Assembly: GCA_000934665.2 (NCBI GenBank) | Contig: KZ538486.1 | Span: forward strand, 1 to 64,000 | Direction of reading: 5' to 3' | Length of the DNA stretch: 64,000 nt | DNA from: Catajapyx aquilonaris | Taxonomy: Eukaryota | Shown here: positions 740 through 53,879 of the stretch, piece after piece | Position numbering within the stretch: position 1 is the first letter of the stretch | Layout of the letters: every line of letters starts with the position of its first letter | Made by a program: the position numbers and the translations under genes | Notes under the pieces: model-generated | What the model saw: the letters and a program-made list of their open reading frames with translations, nothing else | The model's database searches: none | Told to the model about the DNA's origin: nothing

Positions 740-9792
<9,053 letters not shown>

Positions 9793-17300: not shown

Positions 17301-20300
17301 GACCAACCAGGCCATACACAAAGTATAAACACAGTTCAAAAAAAAAACTGGTGGGCATGTCACTCATTATGTAACCATATGCACCTTCCAGGCATAAAAT
17401 AATATCTTCCCATGACCTGCTCAATTTGCAATTTGTTGCGGCCCATCACGCATCATGGCATGGAACAAGTTGTGTTCAAGGTCGCGAACAGATTTGCGTG
17501 CCAGCACCCAGCAGGGTAATGAGAGTGGAATTAACATTGCTCAATTCGTGGAAATATACACCACCCTGATTTTACAGCAAATAGTGAAATTAATCAATGG
17601 CATGGGGAGACATCACAAAAGTCATCCTGAGTCACCAGAGGATTGACCATTCCAGAGTAATCATGTAGCTACTGTACATAATAAAATAACAATGAATCTG
17701 CTTTCATACAGTAGCAATTGACATAATTATACACTAATTGGCAACATGATTTCACAAATGCTTATCCCACATGATAAAAATGTAACTATGCCAATGCAAA
17801 TTCAGCCTCATCAGAACAACTGAGGCAAGTGAGAGACTCGCATAATTGCATCTATGAATGCCAAGCATGTTGAGTAAAACCAGGTGGGGCTCTCTATGGA
17901 GCCAATGACAGTTTGCCATTGTACAACCTACACTTACATCTTCATGCATATGCAACTCAAATGGCCAAAACATCGCAATCACTCCGAATAGCTATGCATT
18001 ATCCCTATAATAGAGGGATGTTATTTACACCCTGACACTGGTAACCCACATTGTGGCACTCTACAGCCTAACATACCCGGATTCCTGCATCCCGGTTCGC
18101 CTGGGCCACTCCAATATCTGCATCCCGCTTGACTGCTGCCGTCTGTGCCTTGCCCAAAGATGCCAGGTACTCAACATTGTCGTACACATCCTTGATGGTG
18201 AACGACAGGATCTCAATGCCCATCCGGCCTACATCCGGAGCGGCTACTTCCCTTACCAGGGCAGCGAACTGGTCTCGGTCTTTGTACACCTCCTCCACTG
18301 TAAGTGTTCCTGCAAAGATAAGAACATGCCGTCAGCTAAATCCTACAAGAAGATACAACACTGCCACAACCTGATGACCGCCGCACAGGTGAATGTGAAC
18401 ATCAACCCCAATTCAATCAGGGGCATCCACATCCTTACATCAGCCTAACTCTCTGGCTGACACCCAAATGCCCCCCACCCCACAACGCTTTGTGATAACA
18501 CGTCCTCTTTGCTGCACTGCACATGTAGATTCATAAACTGCGGTTGATGGACTGCTTCAGTGATACACATGCTTCAAGGCCAAACTTCCAATTATAGCAG
18601 CCCTTGGAATTCCACTAAAATTCCCCAGCTCAATTCAGTTTGTGGATTTTTTTTTACTGATGTGACTAGTACATACCCCAACGATTTTATTACCCCTACA
18701 ACACACTAGCACAACTATGAAAACAAATTAGTCGACCCTTTCCTGTCACGCTATACAATTACACAATTGCCCCCCATGTTTTGCGCAGAAACCGCTAATA
18801 AACAACGTGATACAATGAGAGGGCAGTGTCAATCACACACTGACGTTACCAAAGCAGGGAAAGGGACAGTGGCTGTAAAAGCCAGCCTTCCGAATATTCC
18901 GTCAGCTGGACAGAAAGTGGATGTAAACAATAGTAATAAACAACTTCACTTTCTTCGTTACAACAAAGTGGAGGATTTCCGCAAGGATTACCTCCATATC
19001 CTCAAGAGGTCGCGACCCCCTTTGGAATTTCCACACATTTCAAACATTCCGGACCAAAAACAGTGTACATATCCGCCAGGTACTGTGTCACACTTCGGAT
19101 CGAAGTGCACGTCCACTTTCATCTGAAAACCAGTCCTTTGGCAACCGCGCAGGAAGTAGGTGACACGTGACGTAACCCCGAACTTTTGACTGGTTTTGAG
19201 GGAGAATCCAGAAAGAGAGGTGCTTTCTCGCAAGGGTGACCGAGAGCGCAATAGTTCCCCGCGACCTGACTCCGTTAACTAGAAAGTATTAAAATAAGTA
19301 AGAGTGGCCGCGCAAGAAGTGGTGCACGCCGTCAGAAACAACCGGGGCATCAGAGGTGGAGGGATGATCTGGCGGGCGGCCATCGCCTGCTGGTGCCGTC
19401 CTCCAGAGACCATCATTGTGTTGGCCGCGATGGTGATGGTGCATGGTCGCATACCGGGTATCGGTGAGGTGACAAACGTGCCGAATAGGGTGGTGCTGGA
19501 ACCGGAGTATGACTTCGTGGTGGTCGGAGGCGGGTCGGCTGGAGCTACCCTGGCCAGCCGGCTCTCGGAGGTACCTCGCTGGAAGGTGCTTCTCCTGGAG
19601 GCTGGAGACGAACCGCATATGCTGGCGCAGATACCCATATATGCCAGCCGACTCCAGCTGGGTTCGTTGGATTGGGCGTACAAGACGGAGCCGCAACCCA
19701 CGGCGTGCCTGGGGTTAAAGGACGGCCGGTGCAACTGGCCTCGAGGGAAGGTGCTGGGCGGATCCAGTGTGCTCAACTACATGCTGTACGTCCGGGGCAA
19801 CCGGAACGACTACGACCTGTGGGAAGCCATGGGCAACCCAGGTTGGGGTTACCGGGATGTGCTGCCGTACTTCAAGAAATCCGAGGACAACTCCAACACC
19901 GGGTATGCATCGACACCGTTCCATAGCAAGAGGGGCGAACTGGGTGTGCAGGAGGCTCCGTGGCACACCCATCTGGCGGATCTCTTCCTCTTCGCCGGAC
20001 GGGAGATGGGCTACCAGGTCAGGGATGCCAATGGGGCGTACCAGGCCGGTTTCATGAGGCCGCAAGGGACCATCCGACGTGGAGCCAGATGCTCTACCAA
20101 CACGGCGTTCCTGTCTCCGTCGCACGTGCGATTCAGGCCCAATTTGCACGTGGCCAAGAAGGCACACGTTGTCCAGGTTGACTTCCAGGTAGGTGGACGG
20201 TATACAATCGGGGCACTAGGCCCAACATTGTTTTTGTCGGACCCCGTTCCGGCACACTTCGCTGCCGCTTGAAATTTTATGGAGTTAGCAGCTTGCTGAA

Positions 20301-22344
20301 CAGAAACCGCAGTGCTGATCGGGCGTTGCACTCTGTAAATCACGCATTGCTATTGCGTTTGTAGGTCAATACTACCATGCTGACCTTGCTCAACTATGGA
20401 ACTGCTATAGTGCTATCAGTGCATAATTTTGGGAGCGCCCAACGTGACACAATTTTCCTACGCCCAAGTGAAGCATACTGGCCAATCCGGTTAAGCCAGA
20501 AGTTACATTAGTCGGAAATGTTGCCGCGCATCCAGAAATGCAGCAATAGTTCTCTGAATTTGCGAAACCTTCCAATGAATGTGTGTCATGCACAAGTCCA
20601 TCCAGCAAATTAGCCAACTTGAAACCACTCTTAAAATTGCGACAGGTGATCATTTACAGCAATAATTTTCTTCGCTAGGACTTAACAAGTCGTGGAAGTC
20701 AATTACATAGTTATGAAACCAACAGCCTGTAACGGATGTGACTCTTGCAGGATGATGGCGGTGTACCAAAAGCAGTGGGCGTGACCATCCAAAGGTACGG
20801 TCGCAAGGAGCAAGTGCGAGCCAAGAGAGAGGTCATCCTTTCCGCCGGCACCATCGGTTCTGCCCAGCTCCTGATGCTCTCGGGTCTGGGTCCTCGCAAC
20901 CACCTGCACAGGATGGGCATCCCAATAGTGGCCCACTCCCCAGGGGTAGGCCGAAACCTGCAGGACCACATCGGTACGGGAGGAATTGTCTTCCTGGTCA
21001 ACCGTCCCATGTCCATCAAAACTCGTCGTCACCTCAGCATCCTCTCCTTCAGCGAGTGGATGAGTGAGGGCCAAGGTCCCTTCACATGCCTAGGAGGTGT
21101 CGAGGGCCTGGCGTGGCTCAACAGCCAGTACTCCAACAGATCACAAGACTGGCCGGATGTCCAGTTTCACTTCATCGGCGGGTCGCTCCTGACCGACGAC
21201 GGTGTCATGCGGCAGATCAGCGGGTTGACCGACCAGAACTGGGAGGCTATGTACCGAGACATGGACGGCCGGGAGTCATGGATGGTTCTGCCTACTCTCC
21301 TTCGACCTAAAAGCCGTGGGAGATTGCGTCTTCGCAGCAGCAACCCTGAGGACCACCCGCTGATATACCCGAATTACCTGCGACACCCGGAGGACGTGCG
21401 GGTCTTGGTAGAAGCCACCAAGATGGCCGTCTCCATGGGTGCAACCACCGCCTTCAAGACGGTCAACTCGACGCTTCTGGCTCGGTTCTTCCCTGCCTGT
21501 TCGCATCTTCCGCTCTTCTCGGACGCTCTTTGGGAGTGCCAGGCTCGGCACTACACGTTTACCAATTACCACCCGGTGGGAACATGCAAGATGGGTCCGC
21601 CGGAAGACCCCATGGCGGTGGTGGATCATCGTCTCAGGGTTTATGGGGTGGAGGGGCTGCGGGTGGTCGATGCCTCCATTATGCCCAATATTGTTAGCGG
21701 GAACACTAATTCGCCGACGATCATGATAGCCGAGAAGGCGTCAGATATTATTAAGGAAGACTGGCTTTAGTCAAGATTTTTATGGATTGTGTGATACTGA
21801 CTCAATAGTGCAAGAGAACCTTTCTTGAAATTCTTCTGTCATGTTAAAAATGCATCTTCGTGCGTGAAATAACAGTAAAAGTGGCAGTCTCTACTCTCTT
21901 ATTTAAATTTAGGGCGTTATGACATTCGCGAGTGAATTTCAAATTATAGTGGTGCCTGATAAGCCGGACGCTCTCTCTGGTCATTAAATATATACCAATA
22001 AACAGTTAACCCCACCACTTTACACTCTTCAAAAAACATACAGTTGTGTTGTAAATTGTTATAAAATACAGTACGCTTTTGCACGGTGTGCACTAGCACA
22101 GTGTTTTACTGCCCTAAGAATAGCGTAGTGCCTTGAAACGTCCTGACTTCAGTGACTGTACAACCGTTTACATGTGATGTGCCATGTGATAACTTTGTCC
22201 TACCTTTTTGTTATATCGAAATATATGCCTGACCATTACTCCTCTACGTTCTATTATTCCCAAAATAGTTGTAATTCGCCGCCAAATCTCCGGCAATGTT
22301 CAGGAGAAACCATCATTAGTGTCTCTCCACAGCCCATTCATTCC

Positions 22345-22427
<83 letters not shown>

Positions 22428-25400
22428 NATCATGCCCTCTTCATTTATACTTTTTTTTTTTTTTTGTTCGCTAATTCAACCTAGGTCTTCCCTAGACCTC
22501 TAGTTAGTCACGACGGATCTTATAAAATACCCAGCATTTCCCTCCCTGAGTAAAAAAATGGAAAGTTTCTGGATTTCTCTATATGCGTTCATGTTTGTGA
22601 TTCAGATATTTTTTTCTAATTCTCTCTACATAAAAAAAAACACATGCTGTACCGTCCCGAGATTCATACCTTACAAGCACGAGCTCCCTTGCGTGCAGTT
22701 CTTGGGATTTCCCTTGGCCATCCACCTATGCCTCTTCCTCACATATATATTTTTTTCTTTACTAGAAATAAAACGGTTTCTCGGGTCATGTGCTCAAGAA
22801 GGTGAAGAAAATGGGACTCGCGACTATGGATTATGATCATAAAAATCTGTCAACTATAAAACTTTCGCTTCATGTCAGTAGATACATCAAACGGTTCAGA
22901 AGATTCGTTTAAAAAAATGTGTAAAAACTTTCTATCCGGGAAGCCAGAATAATATAACCACGACGAGATGATATGCCACGTGATTTAATTAAATCTTTCT
23001 AGGCTGGCGTGACGGAAAACAAAGGCTGACCATTTAAAAACACGACTCGTCTATAGCATCAATTGCATTGTCTTTCACTTTACGAGTCTGAATGAATACC
23101 ATAGAAGACCTTCAAGTCGCAAGGTTAAGGGAACTAGACCGAATTCATTTGCCTTAAAGTGTCGGTCCAAAAAAGAAAGTGAAGCATCTCTGGGATAAAT
23201 GTGGCGTAAAATTCTTTAAGAAACTTATCTACTCATTGCGTGTAACATGTGGTGCTACGAAATTCACGCACTGAAAATAATCGAACTTATTGGTGCATTA
23301 TGGCTGTGTGTTTTCTTTACTTCTTTAATTTCATTTTGACAGTTTCCGTTACGTCGCGTCGCGTCGTCACCTTACTTTTTTGTGACATTTTACCTGAATC
23401 ATGTGCGTATTATAACTAGCTCTAGGTAGCTCTATAGGCAGTCCTGGAAAAGACCGGTATAGCTCTGCGGCTCTGCTGAAGGACAAGTACATAAAAAGCA
23501 CATGAAAAATAAAGATCCTAATCAAAATAACGACTAGGTGAAAAGGTCATTTTTTTTGTCCTCTCACCAGAAATTTCACAGTGTCGCAACAAGTGCTGCG
23601 CTTTTTAACGATTATTTATAATAATTCCACTTCTTGTTACAATGTTTAAAGCGCCATTATTTCTTATACACCACTACGCGTAGTGGATAGGTAATTGTAT
23701 ATTGTCATGCAATTACCAAGGGTGAATCGGTCGATCGTACAGTGTACTTCAGTGGCTAATTTGTAGCCTATTACATGCTTACGTAATGAAATCGTGCTGA
23801 AGCATGCTTTTCAAGCTAAACAATAAGAATCCAAACGAGGTATATAAAAAAAGCAACGACTTTACGTCACTACATGAAATTCACATATTCACCAATACTG
23901 CACCGGTTCTACAATAATTGAAAATTTGCTTCATGGTAGTGACCTCTAGAAAGACTGAAAAATATTGTCCTGAGGACCTCGGACGTGTGCGAAATTCACT
24001 CCAGGGGAACACACGCGTGTCCTCTTTTCCCTCTTTCATCAAGTCCTATTATGAAAGGACTCCAGGGACGATACTTTAATCCCCCCTCTTGCCATCTTTC
24101 CGCACGACTTATAGTATACAACATTACTGCACGTCATGGAGGCAGATATTGAATTACAGCAGCTGTTTCTCCGCACCCCTATATATAGTTGTCGAGTGCC
24201 AAGCAACACATGTTATATACCCAAAGTATTATTATGTCTTTATACTGTGGCACTGACGGATATGAAGGCTCACTCGCACGATATATACACGCAACTACGT
24301 GTAATACATCGTGGCTGCATCATTAAGAAGTAGGCTCCCAGGAACCATAAATACTCATAACACAACAACTTCCTCATAATTCCGGCTGTTAGATATGAGT
24401 AGCTAATATGTCACTCGTACCTGGCTCATATTTTACACCGCAGGCTTATATGACTTATTTATGGAGCGTTAAGTGTAAGTAATCAGCTTGAATAATAACA
24501 ACAACGTGCAATTGAGAAATATGCACGTTTTTATCAAGCGATTGCATGCATCTTCATAATCCATTTTACTGGAACGTTTTTCAGCGTGTTATTCACCAAA
24601 TAGTTTGCAACCCCCCATATTGAACTTGCATCACTCAAAAACCGAATATTTCCTCACATCCCGAGAAGCGTAATCTGTTATTGTATCACCGATAATAATA
24701 AAATATTTCCCCGCAAGTGGTAAACAGGAAAACATTGCGGAAGACGGATATGCACAGAATTCACATTTGCATACAATTTGCGCCAATGTAATATCCAACC
24801 TTTTGAAGTTATAAGATGCAGTATATATGACATTAAGAACTGCCCAACTGCTAAGTAAAATTTTCCGATGATGCCACATAACTTAAAAACCGCCCTATAA
24901 TACAACGTCTTCATGACAAATAGAACATTGCACTGATTTTCCGCTTCTCACACTTGAATCAGAATGTAAAATGACCGTCATTCTGACAGAAAAAGGCATA
25001 TCACGGTCATTTTACCTCTTTCGTCTGTTATGCCAACATCTGCATGTGGGAGCCTGCAGCATAATGCCTCGCGTGACCACTTTTATATTTTATCAAGCGA
25101 ATACATGAAATTCAAGGAACGACGTCAATACATATTCATCTAGGAAAATCCCTGTTTTTCTCCCCTAGACTAGCAATTTTCCTCCTTTTGCCCAAAAATA
25201 GACCCCGCCAACTGACTGGAATCCAGTCATCCTTGTAAAAAACCACCGATATTAGCGATAGCCATAGGTATTCCCCTATATGCCCCGTCAGAACGAGTAT
25301 GAGCATCCGAGATTACGAAATATTAGAGTGGGAATCCACCTTGCTGCTCTTTTGCGGTCAAGGGCGAATAGTCACTCCAGTATCATGGCCTTGGATCCGC

Positions 25401-28400
25401 GGCGATTACAACTAAAGGTCTACCGGCCTAACACTCAGTCGTACGCGATAGGTGGTCAGCAGGATGCCGCTCCTCACCTCATACTACACCCTAATGGCGG
25501 TGGGTATGGCCACCTACCTGGCCGTGAGTCGCGTGACAGACAGGCACGAGCGGTACGTACCAAACCGGAGGGTATTGGACCGGGAGTATGATTTCGTGGT
25601 GATTGGCGGAGGTTCGGCGGGTGCTGTGATGGCCAGCAGGCTATCAGAAATTCCTCAGTGGTCCGTCCTCCTGCTGGAAGCTGGTAAGGAGCAGCCGGAG
25701 CTTACGCTGATTCCGGCCACTGCCATTACCCTTCAGAACACGGACCTGGACTGGAAATACCGGACAGAGCCACAGTCCACCGCGTGTTTGGGTATGGAAG
25801 GGGGTCGGTGCAACTGGCCCAGGGGCAAGGTGCTGGGCGGGTCCAGCGTGCTCAACTACATGATGTATGTGCGTGGCAACAAGAGGGACTACGACCAGTG
25901 GGAATCGCTGGGCAACTTCGGGTGGTCGTACCAGGACGTTCTGCCGTACTTCCTGAAGGCGGAGGACAACCAGAACAAAGCCTACACCAGTACGAGGTAC
26001 CATCGCAGCGGTGGTCCTCTAGGCGTGTGTGAAAGCCCGTATACGACCGAACTCCTGCAGCCATTTCTGGACGCCGGACGCGAGCTGGGGTACGCCGTAC
26101 ACGACTGCAACGGTGCTAACCAGACCGGGTTTATGCAGTGCCAAGGAACGATCAGAAGAGGTGCTAGGTGCTCCACCAACTCAGCCTACCTAAGGACCAA
26201 CCACGTGCGGGACAGGCGGAATCTCCACGTGGCTCTGGAATCTCACGTGCACCGCATCCTCACGAACGACGATCCGAATGCACCCAGGGCAACCGGTGTA
26301 GTGTTCAAGCGTCGTAATCAAATGCACGTGATCCGTGCCAAACGAGAGGTCATCCTGTCCGCCGGAAGCATCAACTCCCCACAGATCATGATGCTATCTG
26401 GCATGGGTCCCCAAGACCATCTCCAGGAAATGGGCATACCGGTACGGAAGGACCTGCCAGGGATCGGACAGAATCTTCAAGACCACATATCTCCTGCTGG
26501 CCTAGTCTTCCTCATAGACAAGCCAGTGTCCATCATACCAGCAAGGTAAGCCAATTATATTTCGAAATGTGGTATATTCCTAGTGTTCACTAGGGAAATG
26601 CACTTCTTTTCTGTCACTATAATCCTCAAATAGAGATTCAAACCTTGCGTAACTTTTTTTGTTACACTTTCAAAATAGCACCAAGGCTGACACCTACTTG
26701 TTATTCATATATGATATTTGTACTGTAAGTAGGCAAGGTCCCATTCCAGCACAATGGAGGGATATGGACAGAAAAGCCCGATTTCGAGATTTTCTGGGGA
26801 AAAAAAATTGGACAGGAACACTTACAAATCTACCATCCTTTTTCTTCCATCTCCTTTGTTACCATTATAATATGATGTAGTTCCATGGTCCATTTCGGGT
26901 CAGGGTCCAGACCGCAGTATTAAAAACCAGGTCTGACCTTCCAGAGTCCTAAACCCGTTGACCTTCGTGAGATGGTTCCAGAGGCGTGACGGTCCTGTAA
27001 CTACCATCGGCGGACTGGAGGGCCTCGCCTGGGTCAACACAAAGTACGCCAACGCTTCAGAGGATTGGCCTGACATTGAGTTTCACTTCTCCGCCGGATC
27101 CGTGGCTTCCAGTGAGTGGTTCCGCACCAGCAGTGGTTTGTCACAGGCCAACTGGGACGCCACTTACAAAGAAATCTTGGGTCGGGACAGCTGGATGGTC
27201 CTCCCCATGCTGCTCAGGCCACACTCCAGAGGCTATATCCGGCTGAACAGTCGAAACCCCGAAGTATATCCGCTGATATATCCCAATTACCTGTCAGACC
27301 CTAGGGACGTGGCTACCATGGTCGACTCCGCCAAACTGGCCATCAAGCTGGGTGAGACCAAGGCATTCAGGGACATTAACTCTACCCTTTGGCGGAGGAC
27401 ATTTCCAAATTGCAGCCGTTACGAGTTCCTGAGTGACGAAATGCTGGAATGCCATTCGCGTCATTACACCTTCACTATCTACCATCCGGTGGGTACGTGC
27501 AAGATGGGGCCGTCCAACGACCCGGAAGCTGTGGTGGACAACAGGCTGAGAGTGCATGGGGTCAAGGGTCTCCGGATAGTGGATGCCTCCATTATGCCTC
27601 GAATAGTGAATGGCAATACCAACGCGCCCACGATCATGATCGCCGAGAAGGCGTCCGATATGATCAAGCAAGATTGGTGGTTTTCTGGTCAAGGCAAATG
27701 AATGCTCGGACTCAACTAATTGGTTTCACCCCTCAAGAATTTTCGGTGCCATACGCCAAGGAGGACTGGTGCGTGGGCAGGATACTACACGTATACTTTT
27801 CAAGACTAATGTTGCCTGGTAATACTCGTGCTCTGAGGCCCTTCGAAGCAGTGCAATCTAACTTGGAATGGGGTGTACGTGTCCTTAGACAAGGCACGCA
27901 CGTGATAATGAACTTGGGGTTGAACGCAAGAGTGCCTTCTAAGGACCGATTGCATGATCAATGGAAAATCCAAAATAATATATTTTTCACACACCATTAC
28001 TCATTGGATTTACTATCGATCACTATGCAACCGAAATTAAGTAAGAAGATGCCAGTGTATGAGGATCTCATGTTTGTGACTGACACTATACAACCAAAGG
28101 TCTAATCATTATTCACCTCCTATCCCATTGCCCTTCACAGAACCTGATTCTGAGTTTTTGGAAAACCCATCGCATTTATATGATAATGTACTGTATATTA
28201 TCCACATAAAAAATGTCCTTAACTTATGCAATAAAAGCGGGTCATTACCATACACGGAAGGTATACGATTAATTTGATTAATAGTCAGTTAGGGAAGGCC
28301 ATCCAGTTGCATTAGCATATGTGAGGATGACTCGAGTGACATTTCCATGACAAATCCTTCCCCAATGGCGATCTACGTAGCAAATTGTTTAGCCCAGTAA

Positions 28401-31400
28401 ATCCTTAAAATTGCACAACCTTAAAAAAAAATCAGGCACCAATCTTTGCTGTGATTGAGTAAGCGTCAACTTGCTTTATGATAACTAATTTTAATACAAG
28501 GTATCAAGGTTGTGGCAATATTTGCAATACGGTAATTTAAGGGAAATAATATTTGCGCAGGATGCACCTGTAACAATTCCACGTGAGAAGAACAACGCAA
28601 CGACAGATATTATGCAAAAAAATGTTGAGAAAATTCCCATAAAATATAGGGATCAGGTGGCTCACCCGTGTTCTATATACAATATATTCCTCTCAATATT
28701 TTTAAACTTAACAAGGCTGTCTTCATATTACAATATTTACTTATCATGCAAGCGCCTTCAAATGGCATGCATGTTATTACAAGGATACCCCCACTGAAAA
28801 AAATGTAATGACCTACAACGTCATAATGGTCTCTTTAGAAATGATACAGGGTTTTTCTCAAGGTTAGTGATGAGAAGCATAAAATTGACACCAAGTTCAT
28901 TGAGCTCACTTCAGGCTTTGTTTCATTGTACGGTCGCGGTCGGTCCCATTTATCCACAGGGTCGTTATCCGCGGTTTGTACCAAATTCTTCTTTCCTAAT
29001 GAAACACACAAGTATGGTTGCTAAACGGTTCATGCAAACGCCTAGAGGTAGACTATTATAGGCAAGTCAGTTAAACCAATAACCACAATGCTCATTGAAA
29101 TGTAACACCCGACCCCTTAGCAATTAATCAGACTGGTACTCCCAACTTAATGAAGTCCTTTGCCGCTACAAGCCGCCAGTGTCTGGAGGCCATTTCGCCC
29201 ACTTTTCTTATCCCTCCTGCCACCTGTTGCCATCCACTCGAAACCCACATTTCATTGCAGACTCTGCATTTGCCGCAACCAGTGGGTGGGAGACATTCCA
29301 CCTCGTAATTACTCCAGAAATAACATTCGATGGGAATGTCCCTGGACCACGAGCCAGGCTGCGATGCAATCCGTTCGGAATTTCTGAGGCCAACCGCAAC
29401 AGGAGGGCATTGTCCGGTTGTCACACCCAGTCATCCATTATTACAATACCGATGACAAAGAGTGTCGCAGCTAAGCACGTACAAGAAGCTATCGGCTAAT
29501 TTGATGATATGTCATATGAAAATATTTTTTAAAAAATTGACCATCATTCATTTCACCTGTTACTATAAAGTCAATGTCATAAATTGGTTACATATAGAGC
29601 CAATGGTCAATTTACTAGAAGACAATATTACTTTCACAATACATTTTCTCTTCATTACTGCGTGTCTGCTTCTCATGGCAGGATGCGTCATATCATATAA
29701 CTTCAGATAAGGAAATCAGGTTATGCACTCAGTTGTAACTGGCGACATAAAAGTCACTTCCTTAGGTGTGTTCCGGTAGTCGTGGACTAAAAAAGCTGGA
29801 CTCGAACTTTAGAAGGAAAAAAAAAACAAGTCAGATTTCAGGATGCAGGCCCTTTCACACGACAATTTTACTGCATCCCACGCAAGCCACCTTGATCAAT
29901 CATTTAAGGGACATTAAAATTCTCGTGGTAACCCGTATGCTGTAATTTGCTTTCGATTGCTTATGACGTCAGGTATCCAAGGTGAGTTCCGCTGCGGGGA
30001 AATACACCTGAACACATGATTTCCATAAATTACCCACCTATGCTTTTCCCACCCAAAAGCCAAAACCCTGGTTCTAATGGCAAATGACATATCCGGGTCA
30101 TGCATATGACTGATGCTTTTCAGAATTGTGCTATAAAACACTTCGATGCATTACAGCTCGTTTTTCCAGGACAGGTTACTGTTAATTGGTGGCACTCAAG
30201 AAATCACCTTCCCTATAAACGAGAAAAGGGCACTGCCCTGACGTACCCTTGCAAAAGTCAACTTGTAATGCGACTGGTTTCTAGGTCGATTCAATGCTAT
30301 TTCGAAATCTAGTACTAATGTAAATAATCATCTCCTCATTGAAAAAAAATATATGGTAAACGACGATTTCGCAGGAAAAGTTATGTCATGAAATTGCACA
30401 AGCTAACAGGCACGGCATTTGGCTACTTATCCCTCAAATTTCCAAATCAGGCGCGGCCACTATATGATACTGCCAATAAATTTTCAGAAATAATTATTCA
30501 ATCCTCCTCATCCGATTATACCGAACTCTGTCGTCACCACTATACCCCTGAGGGGTGTGGTGCAGTTAGCTGAAAGTCAGCTCACTTGGGACTTTCCGCC
30601 ACCACACTGATCGCATCATTTTCCTGAACAAGTCTTAGCACCAACCTTGGCGACCTCCACCTTTATCCGCCACGGTAAGCATAGCGGGCGCTCTATCTAA
30701 CACCACACAGAGAGAGAAAAAAAAAAAAACATCATCTGGTTGTGGTGAAGGGAAATTGCAACCCGTAGGCAGAGTGCTGGCACTCCCTGAGCTCAAGCGG
30801 TTTTGTCGTGATTGTGCTGGTCGTGAAGTCAGATCGTAGGGATTCGCCAGTCTTACATACAGGTATGTATCGTCTCAGTCGCACATTTCATAGCCTAACA
30901 AGTTAGGCAAACACTATCAAAACTAATTAAAAATAATTTGAACTTAACAGTTAACTTCTACTCATAGGACGGTCCTGATGATAATATGGCCATAGAAGGT
31001 AATATGGCCATAGAAGGTAATATGGCCAATGGACTGTATCATGTACCGGTACCGTATACATCTTAAGAACAATTTACTAGTCATGTACTAGAGAAGCGAC
31101 AATCAATTCGATGGAATCGTACACGTCCAACCAAATTGAGGTCTACCTACATTTTAACTTCACGATCGTTCTAGTAAATCACTAACCGTTCCCCCTACCA
31201 ATTTGCCCATAAAAATGCCAAAATGGTGAACGGCTTTCACGTTTCGGCCCCCCCTCAACACGCACACTTCCACGCCCTGCTTCTTGTATCCATCTCCATT
31301 AAGCAATTCGATCCAGATTATTTGTTCTCAGTGTCACGTAGGAACATGTGGATGCTTACCACTCTGGCGGAACAATTAGTGACAATGGGATTTTTGAGGT

Positions 31401-34400
31401 TGCAATTGGCGTGCGAAGTTACCATAACTCAATGGGGGGGGGGGGGGGGGGAANGGGGGGAATCCGGTCACTTGCGGTTGCGTTCAAGTTGTCGATACTG
31501 ATCTGTTACATGAAACGAAAGTCGAACTTGAAGATACCAGAATGCAATGGTTTAAAGTGGACGGACGGGTCTTGCAACCGTGGGACTTCGGCTTGACTCG
31601 CGCAGAATTCAAGGCCTCGGGCCAAAACTGGCATTGTTAGTTCTTAGATAATAAAAATTCTTGAAAGTTGACTTGGTCCCTCAAATAATATCTGTATCTC
31701 TGAAACAGTAACCTGAATAACTATCTTCGAGCCGTAAAAAAATTCCACACAATTCGAGCATATTTCGAGTTAAATTTGGCAAAATTCCCACACATTTTGC
31801 AATAAAAGGACAGCGGGATGCTTTTCAATAGGTTATCAATATCATCTAGCTAACCACTAACGAAGGACAATTCATCGTATTATTCGGTATAAGTTTACCT
31901 TGGACAAAATCGTGTCTTGCAACTACTAATCTGTTGCTAAATCCGTTGCAGCGATTACCTGGATAAAAAAACCGGCCCATTTGTAACACCCATCAAATGC
32001 TTACAGTGACGCACGAGCCACAATATTATAAAGAAGCAGATTGAGCACTATTGCCTGCGGGTTGCATTTTAAGTGTCCAAACATAATTTTTCAAAAGAAT
32101 TTATGGCAAATGTTGCGTGCTGGATGCGCAAATTTGTATTTTTAGTGGGAACTTAAACAGTGAGCACCCTGTACATTTGCCACTTATACAGTCCAAAGAC
32201 TGTCTAAATGATAGTGTTTGTGTTTATGGAGACGTGTAGTGTCGAAGAAAACAAGCCAGATGGTCATGCGGCGATACCTCATTTTTCTAATGGCCGTTAG
32301 GCAATTCATGGCTTCCTATTTGTACATGTTAATCTGTTGATAAGCATGCGTCACTAATAATCCTGAACTCAAAAACATCTTTCAGTAAAGTAATTATTAA
32401 AGTATGACTATTAAAATTTTACTTGACAACAGCCTTTGTATGGTAATTACGCGCCACTAGAATATACGGGCATTCAAATAACTTATACGAATTTAGCCGA
32501 ACCGGGAAGTCACAGCCCGATCCTTACCTTCACAAAGCAAGGAACATCTCACGGTATACTGTTAAAGCAGTTAACCTACACCATTCTCTTCCTTCTGCAG
32601 ACACGCCAACGTCATGTGGAAGTGGAAACCACTTTTCCTTTTCTGTCTGGTCACGTCACTGATGATGTGGCGGACCTCCAGCGTCGAGACAGAAGAACTG
32701 ATACCCGACACCCAGTACATCGATGTCGAGTACGACTTCATCATCGTGGGTGCCGGCTCCGGAGGCTCTGTCGTGGCCAACCGCTTGTCGGAAAACCCTG
32801 AGTGGAAGATCCTCCTTTTGGAAGCAGGCAGGGAGCCCAGCCGGGTCAGCGACGTGCCCTCGTACGTGACCCGTCTATTCGAAGAGGATGACCTCATCTG
32901 GTCATACTCCCCGGAAAAAAGCGACCAATTCTGCTTGGGTCTTGACGGCGGGTCTTGCTATTTGGCTCGGGGTCGAGGTCTGGGTGGTTCTTCCTCCATC
33001 AACTACATGGTGTACACACGAGGGGCCAGGATGGACTACGACCACTGGGCGGCCATGGGCAACCAGGGCTGGTCCTACGAGGACGTGCTGCCCTACTTCA
33101 TCAAGTCTGAGGACAACCGCAACCCCGCCCATGTTAACAACAGCTACCATGGAACCGGGGGGTATCTGTCAGTTGAAGAAGTGGGGTACCGCACCAAGTT
33201 GGGTAACGCTTTCTTGGAGGCCGGTCAGGAGCTGGGGTATCAACTGGTGGACAACAATGGGCCGCAGCTGACTGGGTTCACGCCTTCGCAGCTGACCACT
33301 CGCAATGGTGTTCGTGACTCGACGCTCAGGGCCTTCTTGACCACTGCTAGATGTCGGCCCAACCTGCACGTGGCCAAGGGTGCTTTTGTTAGGAAGATTT
33401 TGATCGATTCTGGCGCCAAGAGGGCTTATGGAGTCGAGTTTCAACGTAATGACCGGATTCAAAGATCGATCGCCAGAAAAGAAGTCATATTGTCAGCAGG
33501 AACACTGCACTCACCCCAAATCTTGATGCTGTCCGGCATCGGTCCTCAGGAGCAGCTTCAAAAGCATGGTATCCCAGTGGTGGAGCATCTTCCTGGAGTC
33601 GGTGACAACCTTCAAGATCATCTGTCCGTGGGAGGCATCATCTTCTTGGTAGATCAGCCACTGTCTGTGCGTGACCACACTGTCAATACTGGAGAAAACT
33701 TCGTGCAATGGCTCCGACATGGTAAGGGTCCCCTGACCGTGCCAGGAGGTCACGAGGTGATGGGCTGGATCAACACCAAGTACGCCAATCCGAACGAAGA
33801 CTGGCCAGACATCCAACTCTTCTTCACACCAAACTCCATCGTGACCGAGGACACTGGAGAGCCAGGTTTCGGTCTCTCTCGGGAGAACTGGGATGCCACG
33901 TACAGGGACATCGTCGGTCACGAAACTTGGATGATCCTTCCATCACTGATGCGACCAAAAAGCCGAGGCCATGTGTGCCTCAAGAGCGGTAATCCTGACG
34001 ACCCTCCACGAATCATCCCCAACTACCTCAGTGACGAGGACAACCTGGATCTCAAGACAATCATTGAAGGCGTCAAAGCAGCCCTCCAAGTGGCAGGTAC
34101 CCACAGCATGCAGCGGTTCAACTCCACACTGTGGGGACGACCACTGCCTGCCTGCAGCCATCTGCAATTCCTCACCGACGAATACTGGGAATGTCAGATC
34201 CGACACTTCACCTTCACCTTCTTCCATGGCACCGGAACCTGCAAGATGGGTCCCAACAACGACCCTTACGCGGTAGTTGACAACAAGCTTCGAGTGTACG
34301 GAATTTCAGGTCTACGTGTGGTGGATGCATCCGTGATGCCAACTGTTCCAACCGGTAACACAAACGCTCCGACCATCATGGTTGCGGAGAAGGCCTCGGA

Positions 34401-36604: not shown

Positions 36605-39600
36605 CTGCAATGCATAAGCGTTGTTGGTATCGTTATTCCGTCATGAACTGCCCTTCAAGTACAAGTTGCATGGTAGCTCAAGTGGCAACGAGGAACCACA
36701 TTCTTGGCCTCCGTGACCCAGAAAGAGCGCCGGCAGTGGATCAGCATATGGCGCTGTTGCCATCCTGAACTATAGGAGGCTTCTTGATATTTGTCACTTG
36801 CAATGTTCATAAAACAACACAGCCTGGCATATGTTGCATGCTCAGTTATATTATTCATAAAAGGCACGGAACGGTTAGCACTAATAGTAAAAGTACATTA
36901 CACACTCTGGGGATTGCACGACATTACGATTCATTTAAATATTGTGGGTAGGGCTGAATGTCATCGCATTGTCAGCGAGCAGAGGTATTGTTAGTTTAAC
37001 CTGCCTGGGGCATCCCCATACTTTATGAAGTGATATGTGTTGTCACTCAGCGAGTACGACAAATCCTGCTATTCAAAACAGGTGCAGCATAACGATGAAG
37101 GGTAGTCGACCATGTCAGATTTAATTAGAGTGCACAAATATCAACAATACTGCAATATCCTGCTGCCAAAAATAACTCCAACAGGTAACATCCTGCACAC
37201 TGCACCACAACCACCATTTTTATCTCCCTTTGTTTATCCAACGGATGATCACACTGTAATAACCACCGTTAAGATGAAAAGCAAACCATCATCCATTACA
37301 ACCCCCCATGAAAAGAGCCCTCTCCCGCCACCTTTAGGTGTCTACCTCGTGAAAGTGGCAACACCGGTCCTTCTATTAGCCATAGGGCCGCAAGTGGTAC
37401 AAGTCGACAGAGCCAAGGGAGGAAGACCAGATATGAGATCTTCCTCTTCTTCAGGGGACCATCTCCTTCAGTGAGAGGATGGAGGGCGACTGGCAGACAT
37501 CCGGATCAGGACATCCTCCTATCGGTCATGACCAGACAGTCTTCCTCTCTCTTTTTGCCCATCACATCTTGGGAATCCCCAGCCTGCCAGTACTCTGACC
37601 CTACTAGGCGTGACAGCTAATCATCGAGGTCTTCCCCCCTACCATCAGGCACATATAATGGAGCTCGGGTAAGTTGATCCTCATCTCCGGAGTCAATATT
37701 GCTTTCATCGACCCCGGGCTAAACCGGCTACACTATGAATCTGGCACGGTTAGGTGCGGACTATAGGGTAAAAAAATTAGTACCCGGAGAGACTAGAATT
37801 TAATTATTATCAGATACTCACACTAATTCCGTTACGGATTATTACATTAGAGATCAAATTGTGAGTGACTTACGTTCTGATTTCGCCGTTACTAGCTGTC
37901 TTGGGTCAAGCAATTAGTGTCCTAAAATACTGTACAGGCATTTTCAACAAGTCGATGCATTTTCCATCAGAGCATAATAAGTTTGAACATCCGGCTTGAT
38001 GAATAGGAAAATAATAATTAAACATACGGACCAGTACACTGGCACAATGCTGCGGTACAATGCCTGAATTGGAGCGTGTATCAGGCTGATAGATTATTCA
38101 CGTTTCTTTTTAATTGTTGCGTGTTCATCCTGCCCTCCAATCAGGAGTGCCTAAGGCTGTTGCAGGACACAAACTCACCCTAATCTACCTGTCGTGAGGA
38201 ATCCGTCAAGGGTGCTAATTAAAACCATGTCGGCGTCTCTTTGTGGGCACTCTATATTATTAGCCTCGTCCCATTTCCGAGATATAACCTGCTATTAACA
38301 TCGCCATTGTCACACTACCTGTTCTATTAGCCTATCCCGTTATATTCCAAGTCCAATATTTTAACATTTCGGGGTCCTCCCTTTGTGAAAATCCCGGTCA
38401 ATGCACGTAATGGCTGAATATTGATGATAAAAAATGCAGTGTGGCATAACTACTGTATATATTTACTATACCATAAGGAAGTTCACTAGGATGGCACCTA
38501 AAATTTGAAACGTCATTACGCGACCAAGTTCAGTAACTTGTATGAGAAACTTCCGGGTCAATTACACAAATCCATAAACTTCCTCACTTCCTAGGAAGGG
38601 TAACACTTCGCGGATGTCGTAATAATAGACGCGATTTACTTTCCCTTCCACGGTTGAATCGATAACAATACTTCTAACCTCATGTTCAATTCAGTGAAAC
38701 AGGCAGGCTAGACACTGACAGTGTTCTAAAAATGGGGTCATATATTCCAAAATAAAATTGATCATGCGAAGTTATTTGTCCCACACACTAGTAAATTATT
38801 ACTGTTTTTCATGATGCCAAACCATGACATCAAACAAATCGTTTCTATAACCAGCTAATTCCAGCTCAACCGGTCAGCTCCAATGCCAAGTGCAAGAGCA
38901 TGCACGGTCTAGGTCACGCAGGGGTTTCATGAAGCGTATACCCTTTTGCATCGCAAGGTGAAAGTAATATGATACCCAAGGTAACATCATAAAGGGGGAC
39001 ATGCAATCCATCAGTTCAAGTCCATTCATATTGGCAAAGAAAGTGACCAAGAGTATTTGCCTTTAAAATATTCCTGTCATCTGCAGTCAACCCTTGTTCA
39101 CTTTCCACGAGACAAAGCGTAAAATAGCATAGTTCTCAGAAGTCAACACATGCCAAACACCACGGGGGTCTCCACGATCGGTATGCAAGAAGCGAAGCAA
39201 TCGCATCCATTCCGCAATTCTGCATCTGAATGCCAAATTCGGGCTCTTCTTTAGAAGGGAAAGCGAGCTCCGTGGGTTTGGTCACGTCCGCATCTCAAAA
39301 TGGCACACATCTGACTCTCCTTTTAGCACTGGAGATTGGCCACTTCTCAGAAAAAAACGTGTGTATAGTAGGAAGTCCTGAAGCTCTCAAAAATCGCGCC
39401 ATTTTCCCCGAATCGTCCGCCAAGTGGGTCACTGGAATAGAACCAAACACCGTTGCCATTCATAAAAACTTCAGTAATTATGTTTTCATACACAAACAGT
39501 CCTTCACATACTGTATATTCAAACCAAAATGAAACTAATTTGTCATCACTCATCAACAGTATTACTCGCAAATAACTCGCCCTAACCAAATAATAGGGCT

Positions 39601-41913: not shown

Positions 41914-43776
41914 ATGTACCTCCTATTTCCCACTTCTAACCCTGTGATGGGTGCCATCTCAATGCTGGCATCCAGCGTCTGGATAGTGCCAATCCTTCTG
42001 GCGGCCGTCGGATACCTCCGTTACGACCGCTGGGACCCAGAGGGCCATCCGGTCAGCCAACGAGTCCTGGACCCGGAATACGACTTCATCGTCGTCGGCG
42101 GCGGATCAGCCGGTGCCGTCATTGCCAATCGCCTTTCAGAAGTCCCACACTGGAAGGTGTTACTTCTAGAAGCAGGTGGTTTGGAAAATGACTTCTCTGA
42201 TGTGCCAGCCCTGGCCGCCTACCTCCAGCTCAGCAAAATGGATTGGTCCTACAAAACCGAGCCTCAACCCTCTGCCTGCCTCGGCCTCAAGGGCGGCCGC
42301 TGCAACTGGCCCAGGGGCAAAGTACTAGGAGGTTCCAGTGTTCTCAACTACATGCTATACGTGAGGGGCAACAGGAAGGACTACGACCAATGGGCTGCCA
42401 TGGGAAACACCGGATGGGGTTATGACGACGTACTACCATACTTTATGAAGGCCGAAGACAACCGGAACCCTTACTTATCCAGATCATCATATCACGGCAG
42501 TGGTGGCTATCAAACGGTGCAAGAAGCCCCCTGGAGAACACCACTGGCAACGGCCTTCCTCAAAGCCGGAGTGGAAATGGGATACGAGAACAGGGATGGA
42601 AATGGAGAGCATCAGACCGGGTTTATGATGGCTCAGGGAACGACCCGAAAAGGAAAGCGGTGTAGTACGGCTAAAGCGTATCTTAGGCCCATCAAGTGGA
42701 GACGAAACCTGCACATAGCGCTAGAATCTCACGTTCACCGCGTGCTTATCGACCCTGAGACTAAGCGCGCGTATGGGGTCAGGTTCAAACGTGACAATCG
42801 TATTCAACTAGTGAAAGCCAGAAAAGAGGTGATTGTAAGTGCAGGGTCGGTCAATTCACCCCAGCTGCTGATGCTGTCCGGAATAGGTCCTAGATACCAC
42901 CTGGAGGAGATGGGCATACCCCCGATTCATGACCTGCCAGTGGGCAACAACCTGCAGGATCACATTGGCATGGGCGGCTTGGTCTTCGTCATCGACCAGC
43001 CAGTGTCGATGGTGATGCCGCGCTATGAAAATCTGGCCTCGGTGTTTCAGTGGGCCATGTATGGTCAAGGACCCTTAACTATTTTTGGCGGTGTGGAAGG
43101 ACTTGCCTGGATCAGTACCAAATACGCCAACGCCTCTGAAGACTGGCCTGACGTGGAGTTTCACTTCATCGCAGGTTCAACCGCCTCGGATGGAGGCACC
43201 CAGATCAGACGAGCCCACAATGTGGGTGACGAACTATACAATGCCGTCCTGAAACCCCTGAACCTGAAGGACACCTGGAGCGTCTTGCCAATGATTCTAC
43301 GACCAAAGAGCAAAGGCTACATCCGACTTCGTAGCAACAACCCTGAAGAATACCCGCTCATTTACCCCAACTATTTGACCCATCCGGACGACGCCCCTGT
43401 GCTGGTAGAAGCCATCAAGGTGGCAGTGGCCATGAGCCAGACGGAAGCTTTCCAAAAATTCCATTCTCGCGTCAACGGTCACTTATTTCCCGGATGCCTT
43501 CACGTACCACCGTTTAGTGATGCCTACTGGGAATGCACCGCGAGGCAATACACCTCGACCATATACCACCCTACGGGGACATGCAAGATGGGTCCTCCCC
43601 ATGACCCGGAAGCGGTGGTGGACCCCAGACTCAGTGTGTACGGCGTCAGTGGTTTAAGGGTGGTCGATGCTTCGATCATGCCTGTGATTGTCAGCGGAAA
43701 TACAAACGCTCCAACCATCATGATTGGCGAAAAAGCATCCGACATGATCAAAGAAGACTGGTTTACAATGCCATGA
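41914..43776 (+). CDS. GMC oxidoreductase 4 (single coding exon, 620 aa), nested in the upstream Flo2 intron
   Basis: Uninterrupted ORF. The N-terminal hydrophobic segment plus YDRWDPEGH resembles conserved insect cluster GMCs. Motifs [41 protein letters not shown]. Confidence 0.97.
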
Positions 43777-49196: not shown

Positions 49197-51419
49197 ATGG
49201 ACAACGTCAACGGCAACGCGTTGCGGTTAGTCCCACTGCTGCTACCATTCTTCGGGCTATTCCACTACGATATGAACGATCCGGAGGGTCATGTGGTCAA
49301 TCGGATGGTGCTGGACAGGGAGTATGACTTCATAGTGGTGGGTGGTGGCTCGGCAGGTGCGGTAGTAGCCAACAGACTATCCGAAGTGCCGCATTGGAAG
49401 GTGTTGCTACTAGAGGCCGGTCCGGACGAGAACATATTCACGGACATACCCTCTCTGGCCGTGTACCTCCAGCTGACTGACATCGACTGGAAATACCAGA
49501 CTGAACCACAACCGACAGCCTGCTTAGGATTCAAAGACGGCCGGTGCAATTGGCCTAGAGGAAAAGTTCTTGGTGGATCAAGTGTGCTCAACTACATGGT
49601 GTATGCTCGGGGTAATCGAAGAGACTACGACGGATGGGTTGCGGACGGTAACCCGGGGTGGTCGTACCGCGAGGTGTTGCATTATTTCAAGAAGTCGGAG
49701 GATAACCGTAACCCCTATTTAGCCCGGAGTGACTATCATGGTAGTGGAGGCTATCAGACGGTACAGGAATCTCCTTTTCACACACCCTTGGCCCTAGCTT
49801 TTCTTCAGGCTGGAATCGAAATGGGATACGAGAGCCGCGATATCAACGCCGCTATTCAGACCGGATTCATGCTGCCGCAGGGGACGCTTAGAAGAGGTTC
49901 AAGGTGCAGCACAGCCAAAGCGTTCTTGCGTCCAATAAGGTTCCGGCCTAACCTTCATATTGCCCTCAACGCCCAGGTTAGTCCTATTATGAAAATTTTA
50001 AATGCTATTTTGTTCATCAACTATATGTGTGAGTGTGTAATTATTACATATGCTCCTCACACCACTTACTCAAAGTTCCCCAGGGTCACCCGTATGTTTC
50101 TCAACAGCTGCATACATTACTTGCAACTTCAATTACATACATGCAGCACACAAAAGCGTTATCAATCCCATGATAAAACCTGCCTGTCAAGTCACACGCA
50201 ACAATTACTGTAATTTCCCTGATGCACACTAAAAGCACTAACATAATGACTACTGTTTTTGGCAAATGCTATACGTTATTTATACCCGCATGCAGGTACA
50301 TCGTCTTCTGACGAAGCGACGCACCAAGCAAGTCGTAGGTGTCGAATACAAGCGGAACAGCCAGATTCTGGAAGTCCGTGCTAAACGAGAGGTCATCCTG
50401 TCAGCCGGTGCCATCAATTCTCCCCAAATCATGATGCTGTCCGGCATAGGTCCTAAGGATCACCTCAAAAAAGTCGGCATACGAGCGATGCATGATCTTC
50501 CGGGAGTAGGCCAAAACATGCAAGACCACATCGGACTGGGCGGACTCGTGTTTGTAGTCAACCAGCCTGTCTCTCTGGTTATGCCCCGGTTTGAAAACCT
50601 GGCTTCGGTGTACCAGTGGAGTGTACACGGAAAAGGACCTATGACAATTCTGGGTGGGGTGGAAGCACTTGGGTGGGTCAACACCAAGTATGCAAATGCA
50701 TCAGACGACTACCCGGACATCGAGTTCAATCTCATTGGCGGAAGTGCTGGATCGGACGGTGGTTCCCGAATCAGATTAGCCCACAATGTGGCCGACGATC
50801 TCTACCAAGCCTATTTCAAACCGGTCGAACTCAAAGACATGTACACCATTTTTCCGCTCTTACTCAGGCCAAAGAGCAGAGGTTACCTTCAGCTGAGGTC
50901 AACGAATCCGGAAGATGCCCCTCTCATTTACGCCAATTACATCACACACCCGGATGATGCCAAAGTAAGTTGACTCGAGGAGGAGTATACGTAGTACCCT
51001 GTATAAACCAATTCATGTTACAGGTGCTAGTCGAAGGAGTCAAGATGGCAGTAGCCCTCTCCGAAACTAAAGCTATGCAACGCTTCGGGGCTCGCCTCAA
51101 CGACAAGCTGTATCCTGGTTGTCGCAACCATACGCCCTGGACTGACCCATACTGGCTGTGCATGGTCCGCCATTACACAACCACCATCTACCACCCTGCC
51201 TCAACCTGCAAGATGGCACCAAAGTCCGACCCAGACGCAGTGGTTGACGCACACCTCCGAGTCCACGGTGTCAAAGGCCTCAGAGTCATCGATGCCTCCA
51301 TCATGCCCACCATAGTCAGCGGTAACACGAACGCTCCAGTCATCATGATCGGCGAAAGAGGTTCCGAATTCATCAAGGACGACTGGGGCGAACCAGTAGA
51401 TAAGATCGACGACACCTGA
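49197..51419 (+). CDS. GMC oxidoreductase 5, nested in the upstream Flo2 intron
   Basis: Exons 49197-49976, 50296-50964, 51024-51419 with phase-0 GT-AG introns (614 aa; start ATG uncertain because the frame stays open upstream). Motifs [41 protein letters not shown]. Confidence 0.95.
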
Positions 51420-53599: not shown

Positions 53600-53879
53600 C
53601 AGTGTTGGGCATAAATCGCGTCATACTGCTTCCGACGTTTTCTAATGCGGCAGAAATGCAAATCGAAGTGACAGAGTGTGAGCCGTGCGAGTAAGAAGAG
53701 GTAGGCTTTGATTGACGTCACCGGCTGGAGGGGAATGGAGAAAAGGCTTGTCCCCAGCCAGTGACGTCACCCAAGGGCTACCATTTCTTACTCGCACGGC
53801 TCGCACTCTATCACTTCGATTTGCACGTCTGCCGCGGCAGATGTCGCTAACAGTATGACAAAATTAATGTCCAGTACTG
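53600..53879. mobile_element. Foldback MITE, Tc1/mariner-like, 280 bp
   Basis: TA-CAGT...ACTG-TA ends with imperfect inverted arms of about 130 bp (e.g. tgcaaatcgaagtgacagagtgtgagccgtgcgagtaagaa vs ttcttactcgcacggctcgcactctatcacttcgatttgca). A second copy starts at 63831. Confidence 0.85.

Follow-up and report, generated by a model that had tools for sequence, protein, structure and literature searches.

Clusters of genes that encode glucose-methanol-choline (GMC) oxidoreductases and lie nested in the flotillin-2 gene (Flo2) have been described in four holometabolous insects, always within one intron and with 10-12 genes, and it has been speculated that they may serve in ecdysteroid metabolism or be regulated jointly (Iida et al., 2007, PMC1891103). 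Several other systems are comparable in part. First, the TipE cluster (PMC3240667) also consists of paralogues long kept within the introns of an unrelated host, and the GMC cluster is cited there as a parallel case; it differs in that its genes and host are unrelated to those considered here. Second, the spider GMC clusters (PMC10354039) are clustered arthropod GMC genes outside insects, but they form spider-specific subfamilies, and the main text of that paper does not mention flotillin. Third, the 12-gene GMC cluster of Cnaphalocrocis medinalis (PMC12734113) is homologous to the insect cluster but is reported as not being inside Flotillin-2; hence, even among insects some clusters may not be nested. 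No non-insect or second-intron case was found in the literature, where subscription papers were poorly covered and an unremarked earlier case is possible; the Campodea genome paper contains neither of the words GMC and flotillin.

The Flo2 gene and its nested GMC genes

The window (the whole 64,000-nucleotide stretch analysed) contains most of a Flo2 gene on the minus strand. By its COX2, which is 92% identical to that of Japyx, 85% to Occasjapyx, 79% to Parajapyx and at most 76% to other named sequences among the matches listed, the host is a japygid dipluran, that is, a non-insect hexapod. Flo2 coding exon 1 is absent from the 64-kb window; extending the search past position 64000, as proposed in the first-pass annotation, placed it at contig positions 67292-67340 (49 nt, 16 codons and one base), and this is the same exon as in supplement S4 of Iida et al. 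The first coding intron (36605-67291, 30,687 bp, phase 1, after codon 16) is thus the one named by those authors. It is followed by coding exon 2 (36510..36604, 95 nt, encoding GGCCGS) and exon 3 (35849..36050, 202 nt, ending in GHLRAIL and one base). The third coding intron (18310..35848, 17,539 bp, GT..AG, phase 1) falls between EGHLRAIL and G, and exons 4-7 are located at 18077-18309 (carrying the Pfam domain Band_7), 17106-17225, 16829-17043 and 16100-16430; the donor of intron 6 is GC, and a search for a final short exon found none. Exons 2 and 3 form a 756-bp block of 297 coding nucleotides with a phase-1 intron on either side. Judging from splice sites and reading frame, both GMC-bearing introns would be spliced out of a Flo2 transcript exceeding 51 kb; splicing over either of them was seen in no run, and run X5 had no Flo2 coverage, which is uninformative on whether Flo2 is expressed. 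An Rfam scan of the window gave no matches.

Five GMC genes, all on the plus strand and hence antisense to Flo2, were identified, and the coordinates given for them in the first-pass annotation as intact and co-oriented all hold. Three of them are found in the third coding intron: GMC1 (19364..21770, from the ATG at 19364 to the stop at 21770, exons 19364-20188 and 20751-21770, 614 aa), GMC2 (25464..27701, exons 25464-26545 and 26945-27701, 612 aa) and GMC3 (32614..34449, one coding exon, 611 aa). GMC3 is covered by run X5, which revealed a 5' untranslated exon at 30674..30862 (the left limit being merely a contig end) from a joint 30859->32598; the intron in between is 30863-32600, GT..AG. 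The other two, GMC4 (41914..43776, one coding exon, 620 aa) and GMC5 (49197..51419, exons 49197-49976, 50296-50964 and 51024-51419, 614 aa), are located in the first coding intron, upstream of the GGCCGS exon, so that the gene models bear out the proposed division by two Flo2 coding exons. The models contain no internal stops and every intron is GT..AG. No further GMC gene was found by the GMC profile on the 151,174-bp contig.

In GMC1, GMC3 and GMC4 both GMC_oxred_N (PF00732) and GMC_oxred_C (PF05199) scored above the Pfam cut-off; for GMC2 and GMC5 only the first exons were scanned, with GMC_oxred_N in both, and their C-terminal exons match the GMC profile built in this analysis. An N-terminal GxGxxG and C-terminal HxxxTC and GNTN are present in all five proteins. 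The first is the FAD-binding motif, the other two are the His and Asn motifs found in active sites of GMC enzymes; because of these motifs, the five are predicted to be FAD-dependent oxidases or dehydrogenases.

The homology to the insect cluster assumed in the first-pass annotation is supported by several features: tandem GMC genes lie antisense to Flo2, the intron occupied by GMC4 and GMC5 is homologous, following the 49-nt exon that codes for the first 16 residues, and these two genes fall with genes of the alpha, delta and zeta types, matched by eye to supplement S8 of Iida et al. and not computed as labels. The differences are also considerable. The host is a dipluran and not a holometabolous insect, and there are five genes instead of 10-12, with no one-to-one delta, epsilon, zeta and theta core in fixed order. 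Three of the five genes are found two exons downstream, in a second intron, and GMC4 and GMC5 pair with each other instead of representing one insect subfamily each. No ecdysone oxidase (beta) type is evident in the array, none of the five resembling the CG9504 entry by eye; the trees themselves include no labelled beta sequence. Finally, at least 32 dipluran GMC genes, recovered from 11 other contigs, lie outside Flo2, the reverse of the insect ratio. Since the host is a dipluran, the nesting known from four holometabolous insects is older than Insecta and dates to at least the common ancestor of Diplura and Insecta, as had been anticipated for a non-insect source.

Assembly and transcript evidence

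The two-intron arrangement could arise artificially if exons 2 and 3 had been misplaced within a one-intron GMC array, which we consider very improbable. In run X1, one contig of 22,262 bp starting from 31441 carries the regions of GMC3, exons 3 and 2, GMC4 and GMC5 (by record positions), and a second one spans Flo2 exon 5, exon 4 and GMC1. Single contigs with even depth in three runs join GMC3, exon 3, exon 2 and GMC4 (from 31441 or 31438), as well as exon 4 and GMC1 (16800-22338). These contigs were assembled separately, possibly from the same sample as the assembly, and they reach across the flanks on either side of exons 2-3; the misassembly named at the outset as a possible refutation is therefore unlikely. 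It is true that in runs X1, X2 and X4 the contigs end at two places, a TA microsatellite (22339-22476) and a repeat (about 31000-31450), each containing N in the window, that the assembly may itself derive from these runs, and that no long reads are listed; however, both breaks fall within the third coding intron. Moreover, Flo2 is single-copy with its exons in order (a search with exon 4 gave two matches, the Flo2 described here and one 45% identical over 42 aa), and the same junction is present in another organism (locus L054, see below). The position of GMC2 between GMC1 and GMC3 is given solely by the assembly. Both GMC2 and GMC3 are spliced in run X5, which comes from another sample and another study; for GMC2, an X5 contig follows the DNA as far as 26545 and then passes to the opening bases of its exon 2.

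Occupancy of the second intron and relationships of the genes

The intron after GHLRAILG was found in 20 of the 51 Flo2 loci examined, distant animals among them, and the intron itself is old. Whether other arthropods routinely have GMC genes there, which the first-pass annotation named as a refutation, is only touched by this survey: one of the 20 loci carries a GMC gene and eight span the intron fully without one. Such genes might have been an ancestral hexapod or pancrustacean feature, common but unreported and lost in the four insects of Iida et al. This we regard as improbable. The age of the intron, its length in thrips-like and cockroach- or termite-like loci, the restriction of the sampling in Iida et al. 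to holometabolans, and the presence of GMC4-like genes in branchiopods and decapods are consistent with it, but the GMC profile was positive in just one of 80 metagenome loci, and the spanning loci without GMC include a hymenopteran-like one (L014, intron of about 0.5 kb) and a likely crustacean (L040, both introns spanned, 1.9 and 4.7 kb). The covered parts of the longer introns are likewise free of GMC genes, namely the first 10 kb in a thrips-like locus (L013, intron of more than 10 kb) and the first 1.5-4.9 kb in five cockroach- or termite-like loci (L015-L019, long intron partly covered). The plankton-type Flo2 group to which L040 belongs (with L029, L031, L035, L037 and L039) is presumably crustacean, probably copepod. 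Clathrin beside Flo2 had no match in the 80 metagenome loci; the matches listed for Flo2 exon 3 in prokaryote genomes (at least 80 loci) were all bacterial flotillins, and there was no match in viral contigs.

The single positive locus, the springtail-like L054 (profile E 2.6e-25), is one 1,230-bp contig without exon 4. Its exons of 95 and 202 nt and phase-1 donor are all as in the dipluran Flo2, and the last 57 codons of an antisense GMC gene, with the stop about 100 bp past the donor, lie inside the intron after GHLRAILG. In exon 3 it shares 88% identity with the springtail Orchesella cincta, no other among the matches listed exceeding 79%, and three of its Flo2 motifs are common to Orchesella alone among 154 Flo2 sequences. 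With 100 GMC genes in 287 Mb, such a GMC neighbour would have a chance of roughly 5e-5 per locus. For Orchesella, the recorded Flo2 is itself a fragment with exons 2-3 only, which fits long introns on either side; fragments of this kind also occur in Bactrocera, Polyplax, Timema and Frankliniella, so the feature alone is uninformative on nested genes. A GMC gene beside Flo2 in Orchesella was not found: flotillin is absent from the rows of supplement file 2 of PMC4987106, and a guessed locus-tag range was empty. No springtail name was present in the 20 GMC clusters looked up.

Our trees were quick searches with SH-aLRT supports and no bootstrap; they contain long branches, and none of their GMC genes is identified as springtail, campodeid, proturan or remipede. 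In these trees GMC4 and GMC5 are sisters (99) within a clade of 21 rows (98) comprising insect, crustacean and two spider genes, with GMC1-3 outside. GMC1 and GMC2 form a sister pair, and GMC3, the most divergent of the five, has no firm position. The grouping of GMC1-3 with the dispersed dipluran genes received 91 in FastTree, whereas the mixture model gave 83 for GMC1 and GMC2 and did not place GMC3. A single clade of GMC1-5 was rejected (p-AU 0.0025). The first-pass annotation had the cluster spreading into a second intron: the occupancy of that intron stands, but an extension of the intron-1 array peculiar to this lineage is not supported, given this rejection and the GMC gene of L054, by which the second-intron state is not unique to this dipluran.

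Origin and significance of the two-intron array

Since L054 has a GMC gene in the same intron, we give some preference to the reading that second-intron occupancy in this antisense array is old, coming from an ancestor common to Diplura and springtails, and is not a recent spill-over. Separate colonisation of the intron by springtails and by the lineage of this dipluran, whether through local hopping out of intron 1 or through re-insertion of a dispersed copy, would amount to the spread of the first-pass annotation occurring twice. It seems to us a good deal less probable, as it requires two events in the same intron, both antisense. The L054 fragment matches GMC4 at 40/48 positions and one of the dispersed dipluran genes at 41/49, compared with 37/48 for GMC1, 35/50 for GMC2 and 34/48 for GMC3; because of the closer matches to GMC4 and the dispersed gene it leans away from GMC1-3, and its being no nearer to these than to GMC4 or insect genes favours two colonisations. 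The weak association of GMC1 and GMC2 with the dispersed genes points the same way, as do the argument of Iida et al. (PMC1891103) for local hopping as the usual exit from the cluster and the mere 756 bp between the target intron and the canonical one. However, GMC1-3 are 48-61% identical to GMC4 and GMC5, whereas between GMC4 and genes of insects and decapods identity is higher (65-66%), which fits an old split unless evolution was fast.

Under the preferred reading of an old, shared occupancy, a progenitor of the insect alpha, delta, epsilon and zeta genes would already have resided in Flo2 intron 1 before the Diplura-Insecta split and given rise to GMC4 and GMC5. A local DNA-level duplication would then have put a copy beyond the exon 2-3 block. 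One route may have been a tandem duplication including this frame-neutral block, with the spare exons lost later, whereby orientation would be kept and Flo2 never broken; as neither a protein profile nor blastn found leftovers of duplicated exons 2-3 in either intron, the route is purely conjectural. The copy would have diverged and duplicated into GMC1 and GMC2 and GMC3, and may be kin to the many dispersed dipluran GMC genes.

Neither a new mechanism nor a new enzyme activity emerges from the locus. Nested genes kept over long times are commonly exemplified by the Flo2-GMC cluster, and the smaller two-intron form described here argues that the constraint is residence inside Flo2 and not one intron or gene order. 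Shared occupancy would also make the second-intron GMC a candidate marker for a hexapod node debated for more than 100 years, as a character whose presence or absence can be read from springtail, campodeid, proturan, silverfish and remipede genomes already available. Quite tentatively, it might be a rare genomic change that unites Diplura with Collembola and excludes insects, the dipluran locus keeping a two-gene proto-cluster of the insect alpha/delta/epsilon/zeta array. If this were true, the Collembola+Diplura clade of Du et al. (2024, PMC11441524) would gain a structural character independent of other evidence.

Flo2 and the genes nested in it

The single-copy flotillin-2 gene (Flo2) of Catajapyx aquilonaris lies on the minus strand. 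Seven of its coding exons were modelled; their acceptors are canonical and together they encode 415 residues in an open frame, and a final short exon was not found. Of eight named insect Flo2 proteins compared, seven are 84-88% identical to it and one, from a wasp, 78%. The first coding exon, not found within the 64-kb window, is present on the rest of the 151,174-bp contig G000:C865 (67292-67340, minus strand, 49 nt), as the first-pass annotation had anticipated, and the first coding intron therefore spans 36605-67291 (minus strand, 30,687 bp). Exons 2 and 3 (297 nt in total) form a 756-bp block between two phase-1 introns. The third coding intron (18310-35848, minus strand, 17,539 bp, phase 1), hereafter the second intron, follows EGHLRAIL/G.

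Five GMC oxidoreductase genes lie antisense to Flo2, on the plus strand. The third coding intron contains GMC1 (19364-21770), GMC2 (25464-27701) and GMC3 (32614-34449), and the first contains GMC4 (41914-43776) and GMC5 (49197-51419). The positions of genes and introns in the first-pass annotation all proved correct; its suggestion that further GMC genes be sought past 64000 led to none, as a profile built from GMC homologues found no sixth gene on the contig. The translations have 611-620 residues and no internal stops. Each contains the FAD-binding motif together with the His and Asn active-site motifs, and the N-termini are hydrophobic as read by eye; the products are predicted FAD oxidoreductases. 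GMC3 and GMC4 lack coding introns; the four found in GMC1, GMC2 and GMC5 each occupy a separate alignment column, which suggests independent gains.

Five sequencing runs, none of them listed as long-read, matched the stretch: four DNA runs of one sample, possibly the source of the assembly, and X5, a run of another sample and another study. Contigs of four of the five were compared with 16800-36750. In X1, X2 and X4, single contigs extend over 16800-22338 (exon 5, exon 4 and GMC1), over 22477-31003 (GMC2), and from about 31440 through exons 3 and 2 and beyond; in X1 the last is 22,262 bp long, with cross-matches at its positions 10,799 and 18,054 corresponding to GMC4 and GMC5. Since the contigs are unbroken over exon 4-GMC1 and over GMC3-exon 3-exon 2, both ends of the second intron carry a GMC gene on an intact contig. 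The two contig breaks, one at a TA microsatellite and one at a repeat, are both inside this intron; we regard misassembly as highly improbable. X5 has the character of an RNA run: position 30859 is connected to 32598 across a GT..AG intron, revealing an untranslated 5' exon in GMC3, and at the GMC2 donor the sequence departs from the DNA to continue with the first bases of GMC2 exon 2. Its contigs do not cover Flo2, which is neutral as evidence either way. Flo2 would be transcribed through both GMC arrays, splicing them out.

Several other features of the contig were recorded. Intron 6 of Flo2 (16431-16828, minus strand) has a GC donor at 16828 in the gene model. Two copies of a ~270-bp element in intron 1 (53594-53882 and 63825-64049), matching in both orientations at 68-74%, resemble a small non-autonomous transposon. 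The clathrin heavy chain gene (719-9700, plus strand) is the tail-to-tail neighbour of Flo2, and both genes are related to endocytosis; no clathrin match was found in 80 metagenome Flo2 loci, mostly short. Upstream neighbours (71797-149566) were read by eye as, presumably, sirtuin-4, a B9-domain protein, Vps53, DHX37, a DEAD-box helicase, GCN1 and Prp19. At 104529-106961 (minus strand), a WAP-like Cys-rich frame adjoins, by eye, a Pro/Gln/Glu-rich frame with tandem five-residue repeats.

Host lineage and the insect cluster

Among 120 listed matches to the mitochondrial COX2 of the same assembly, Japyx solifugus shows 92% identity, Occasjapyx 85% and Parajapyx 79%, and no other named match exceeds 76%. 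By this gene the host is a japygid dipluran, so that the nesting predates Insecta, the greater age that the first-pass annotation had foreseen for a non-insect host. GMC4 has about the same identity (65-66%) to proteins of cockroach, cricket, lobster and crab, as would be predicted if the host is a hexapod outside Insecta. Of two mitochondrial-type contigs, G000:C8523 carries open frames for the COX1 end, COX2 and ATP6; on G000:C5905, which has ND2 as well, COX1 is frameshifted, and this contig is likely to be an assembly error or a nuclear copy.

Iida et al. 2007 (PMC1891103) described 10-12 GMC genes that share a single intron after the first 16 codons in fly, mosquito, bee and beetle, and left undecided whether the cluster is insect- or arthropod-specific. 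Passages of later papers restate this arrangement (PMC3240667, PMC3578937, PMC12734113), the last with a moth GMC cluster not found inside Flo2. Flotillin is not mentioned in the portions consulted of a spider GMC survey (PMC10354039) and a Folsomia genome paper (PMC10087712), or under a term search of the Campodea genome paper (PMC6938034). Our search, mostly outside subscription papers, found no report of non-insect Flo2-GMC nesting or of a second host intron. The Catajapyx locus is homologous to the insect cluster and would work in a similar way, but its GMC genes occupy two introns rather than one and number five, in place of 10-12 in a fixed subfamily order.

The second intron in other animals

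Of 221 metagenome loci confirmed with Flo2 exon 3 as query, the best 80 were taken, and one (L054, 1,230 bp) gave a GMC profile match (E 2.6e-25). Its Flo2 exons measure 95 and 202 nt and its phase-1 donor (at 955) is the same, both as in the window; the opposite strand carries the 3' end of a GMC gene, comprising the final 57 codons with the stop at 1059-1061. Its source is likely a springtail, because it shares 88% identity with Orchesella cincta in exon 3, against 79% or less with the other 119 matches listed, and three of its motifs recur only in Orchesella when 154 Flo2 sequences are compared. Chance proximity of a GMC gene was roughly estimated at 5e-5 per locus, assuming 100 GMC genes in 287 Mb, and at ~1e-3 over the 16 loci entered in the script, the loci really carrying the intron numbering 20. 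These 20 come from 51 of the 80 loci checked for the intron; two were unreadable by the script, and the rest were transcripts or lacked this intron.

No GMC gene was present in eight loci spanning the whole second intron. Hymenopteran-like L014 spans it without a GMC gene, and L040, a plankton-type locus and likely a crustacean, spans both introns (1.9 and 4.7 kb), again without one. None was found in 10 kb of a thrips-like locus (98/99 to Frankliniella) or in 1.5-4.9 kb of five cockroach/termite-like loci, exon 4 not being reached in either case. The first-pass annotation had asked whether GMC genes after GHLRAILG are routine in other arthropods: L054 has one, whereas the eight spanning loci do not, so occupancy appears neither unique to Catajapyx nor routine. 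That it is an ancestral state, widespread but unreported, is accordingly unlikely in our judgement.

Relationships and origin of the two arrays

Besides these five, 11 other Catajapyx contigs contain no fewer than 32 near-complete GMC genes, and a few more contigs gave GMC matches. Trees of 108 rows, 160 rows (FastTree) and 45 rows (mixture model) were quick searches without bootstrap, with long branches, no identified springtail sequence, and insect and crustacean sequences chosen largely among the best matches to GMC4. All three recovered GMC4+GMC5 and GMC1+GMC2 as sister pairs. The GMC4+GMC5 clade (98 in the 45-row tree) also holds crustacean genes, two spider genes and insect genes, which by eye fit the alpha, zeta and delta entries of Iida et al. 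GMC1-GMC3 fall outside it, near dispersed dipluran genes (support 91, FastTree); the mixture model gave this grouping 83 for GMC1+GMC2 and left GMC3 unresolved. A tree constrained to unite GMC1-GMC5 in a single clade is worse by 63 log units (p-AU 0.0025).

Elsewhere in the assembly, a second array, larger than the one in Flo2, lies at G000:C1696:156320-215281. Its 13 near-complete GMC genes, on both strands, form one dipluran clade (support 99-100) with those of C1098 (four genes), C144 and C1039; further arrays occur on C115 (five), C268 (two) and C209 (two).

A progenitor of the alpha, delta, epsilon and zeta subfamilies was likely in intron 1 before the Diplura-Insecta split, the insect subfamilies diversifying later. 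In an early step, one GMC copy probably passed over the 756-bp exon 2-3 block, possibly by a tandem duplication including these exons followed by loss of the spare ones, leaving GMC genes in both introns. Such a duplication would preserve the Flo2 frame and GMC orientation, since 297 nt lie between two phase-1 introns; no remnant of a duplicated block was found, and the route is therefore offered as a proposal. The L054 fragment matches GMC4 at 40/48, a dispersed dipluran gene at 41/49, the best insect and crustacean genes at 41-43/48 and GMC1-GMC3 at 34-37 positions; if anything it leans away from GMC1-GMC3, which would count against strict orthology. Independent colonisation of the second intron in diplurans and springtails is considered less likely.

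The locus dates the nesting of GMC genes in Flo2 to before Insecta and supplies a scorable character, GMC genes in the second Flo2 intron. Collembola and Diplura were recovered as a clade by Du et al. 2024 (PMC11441524), and the character might, quite tentatively, agree with this grouping, provided that it is absent from insects, proturans and crustaceans.
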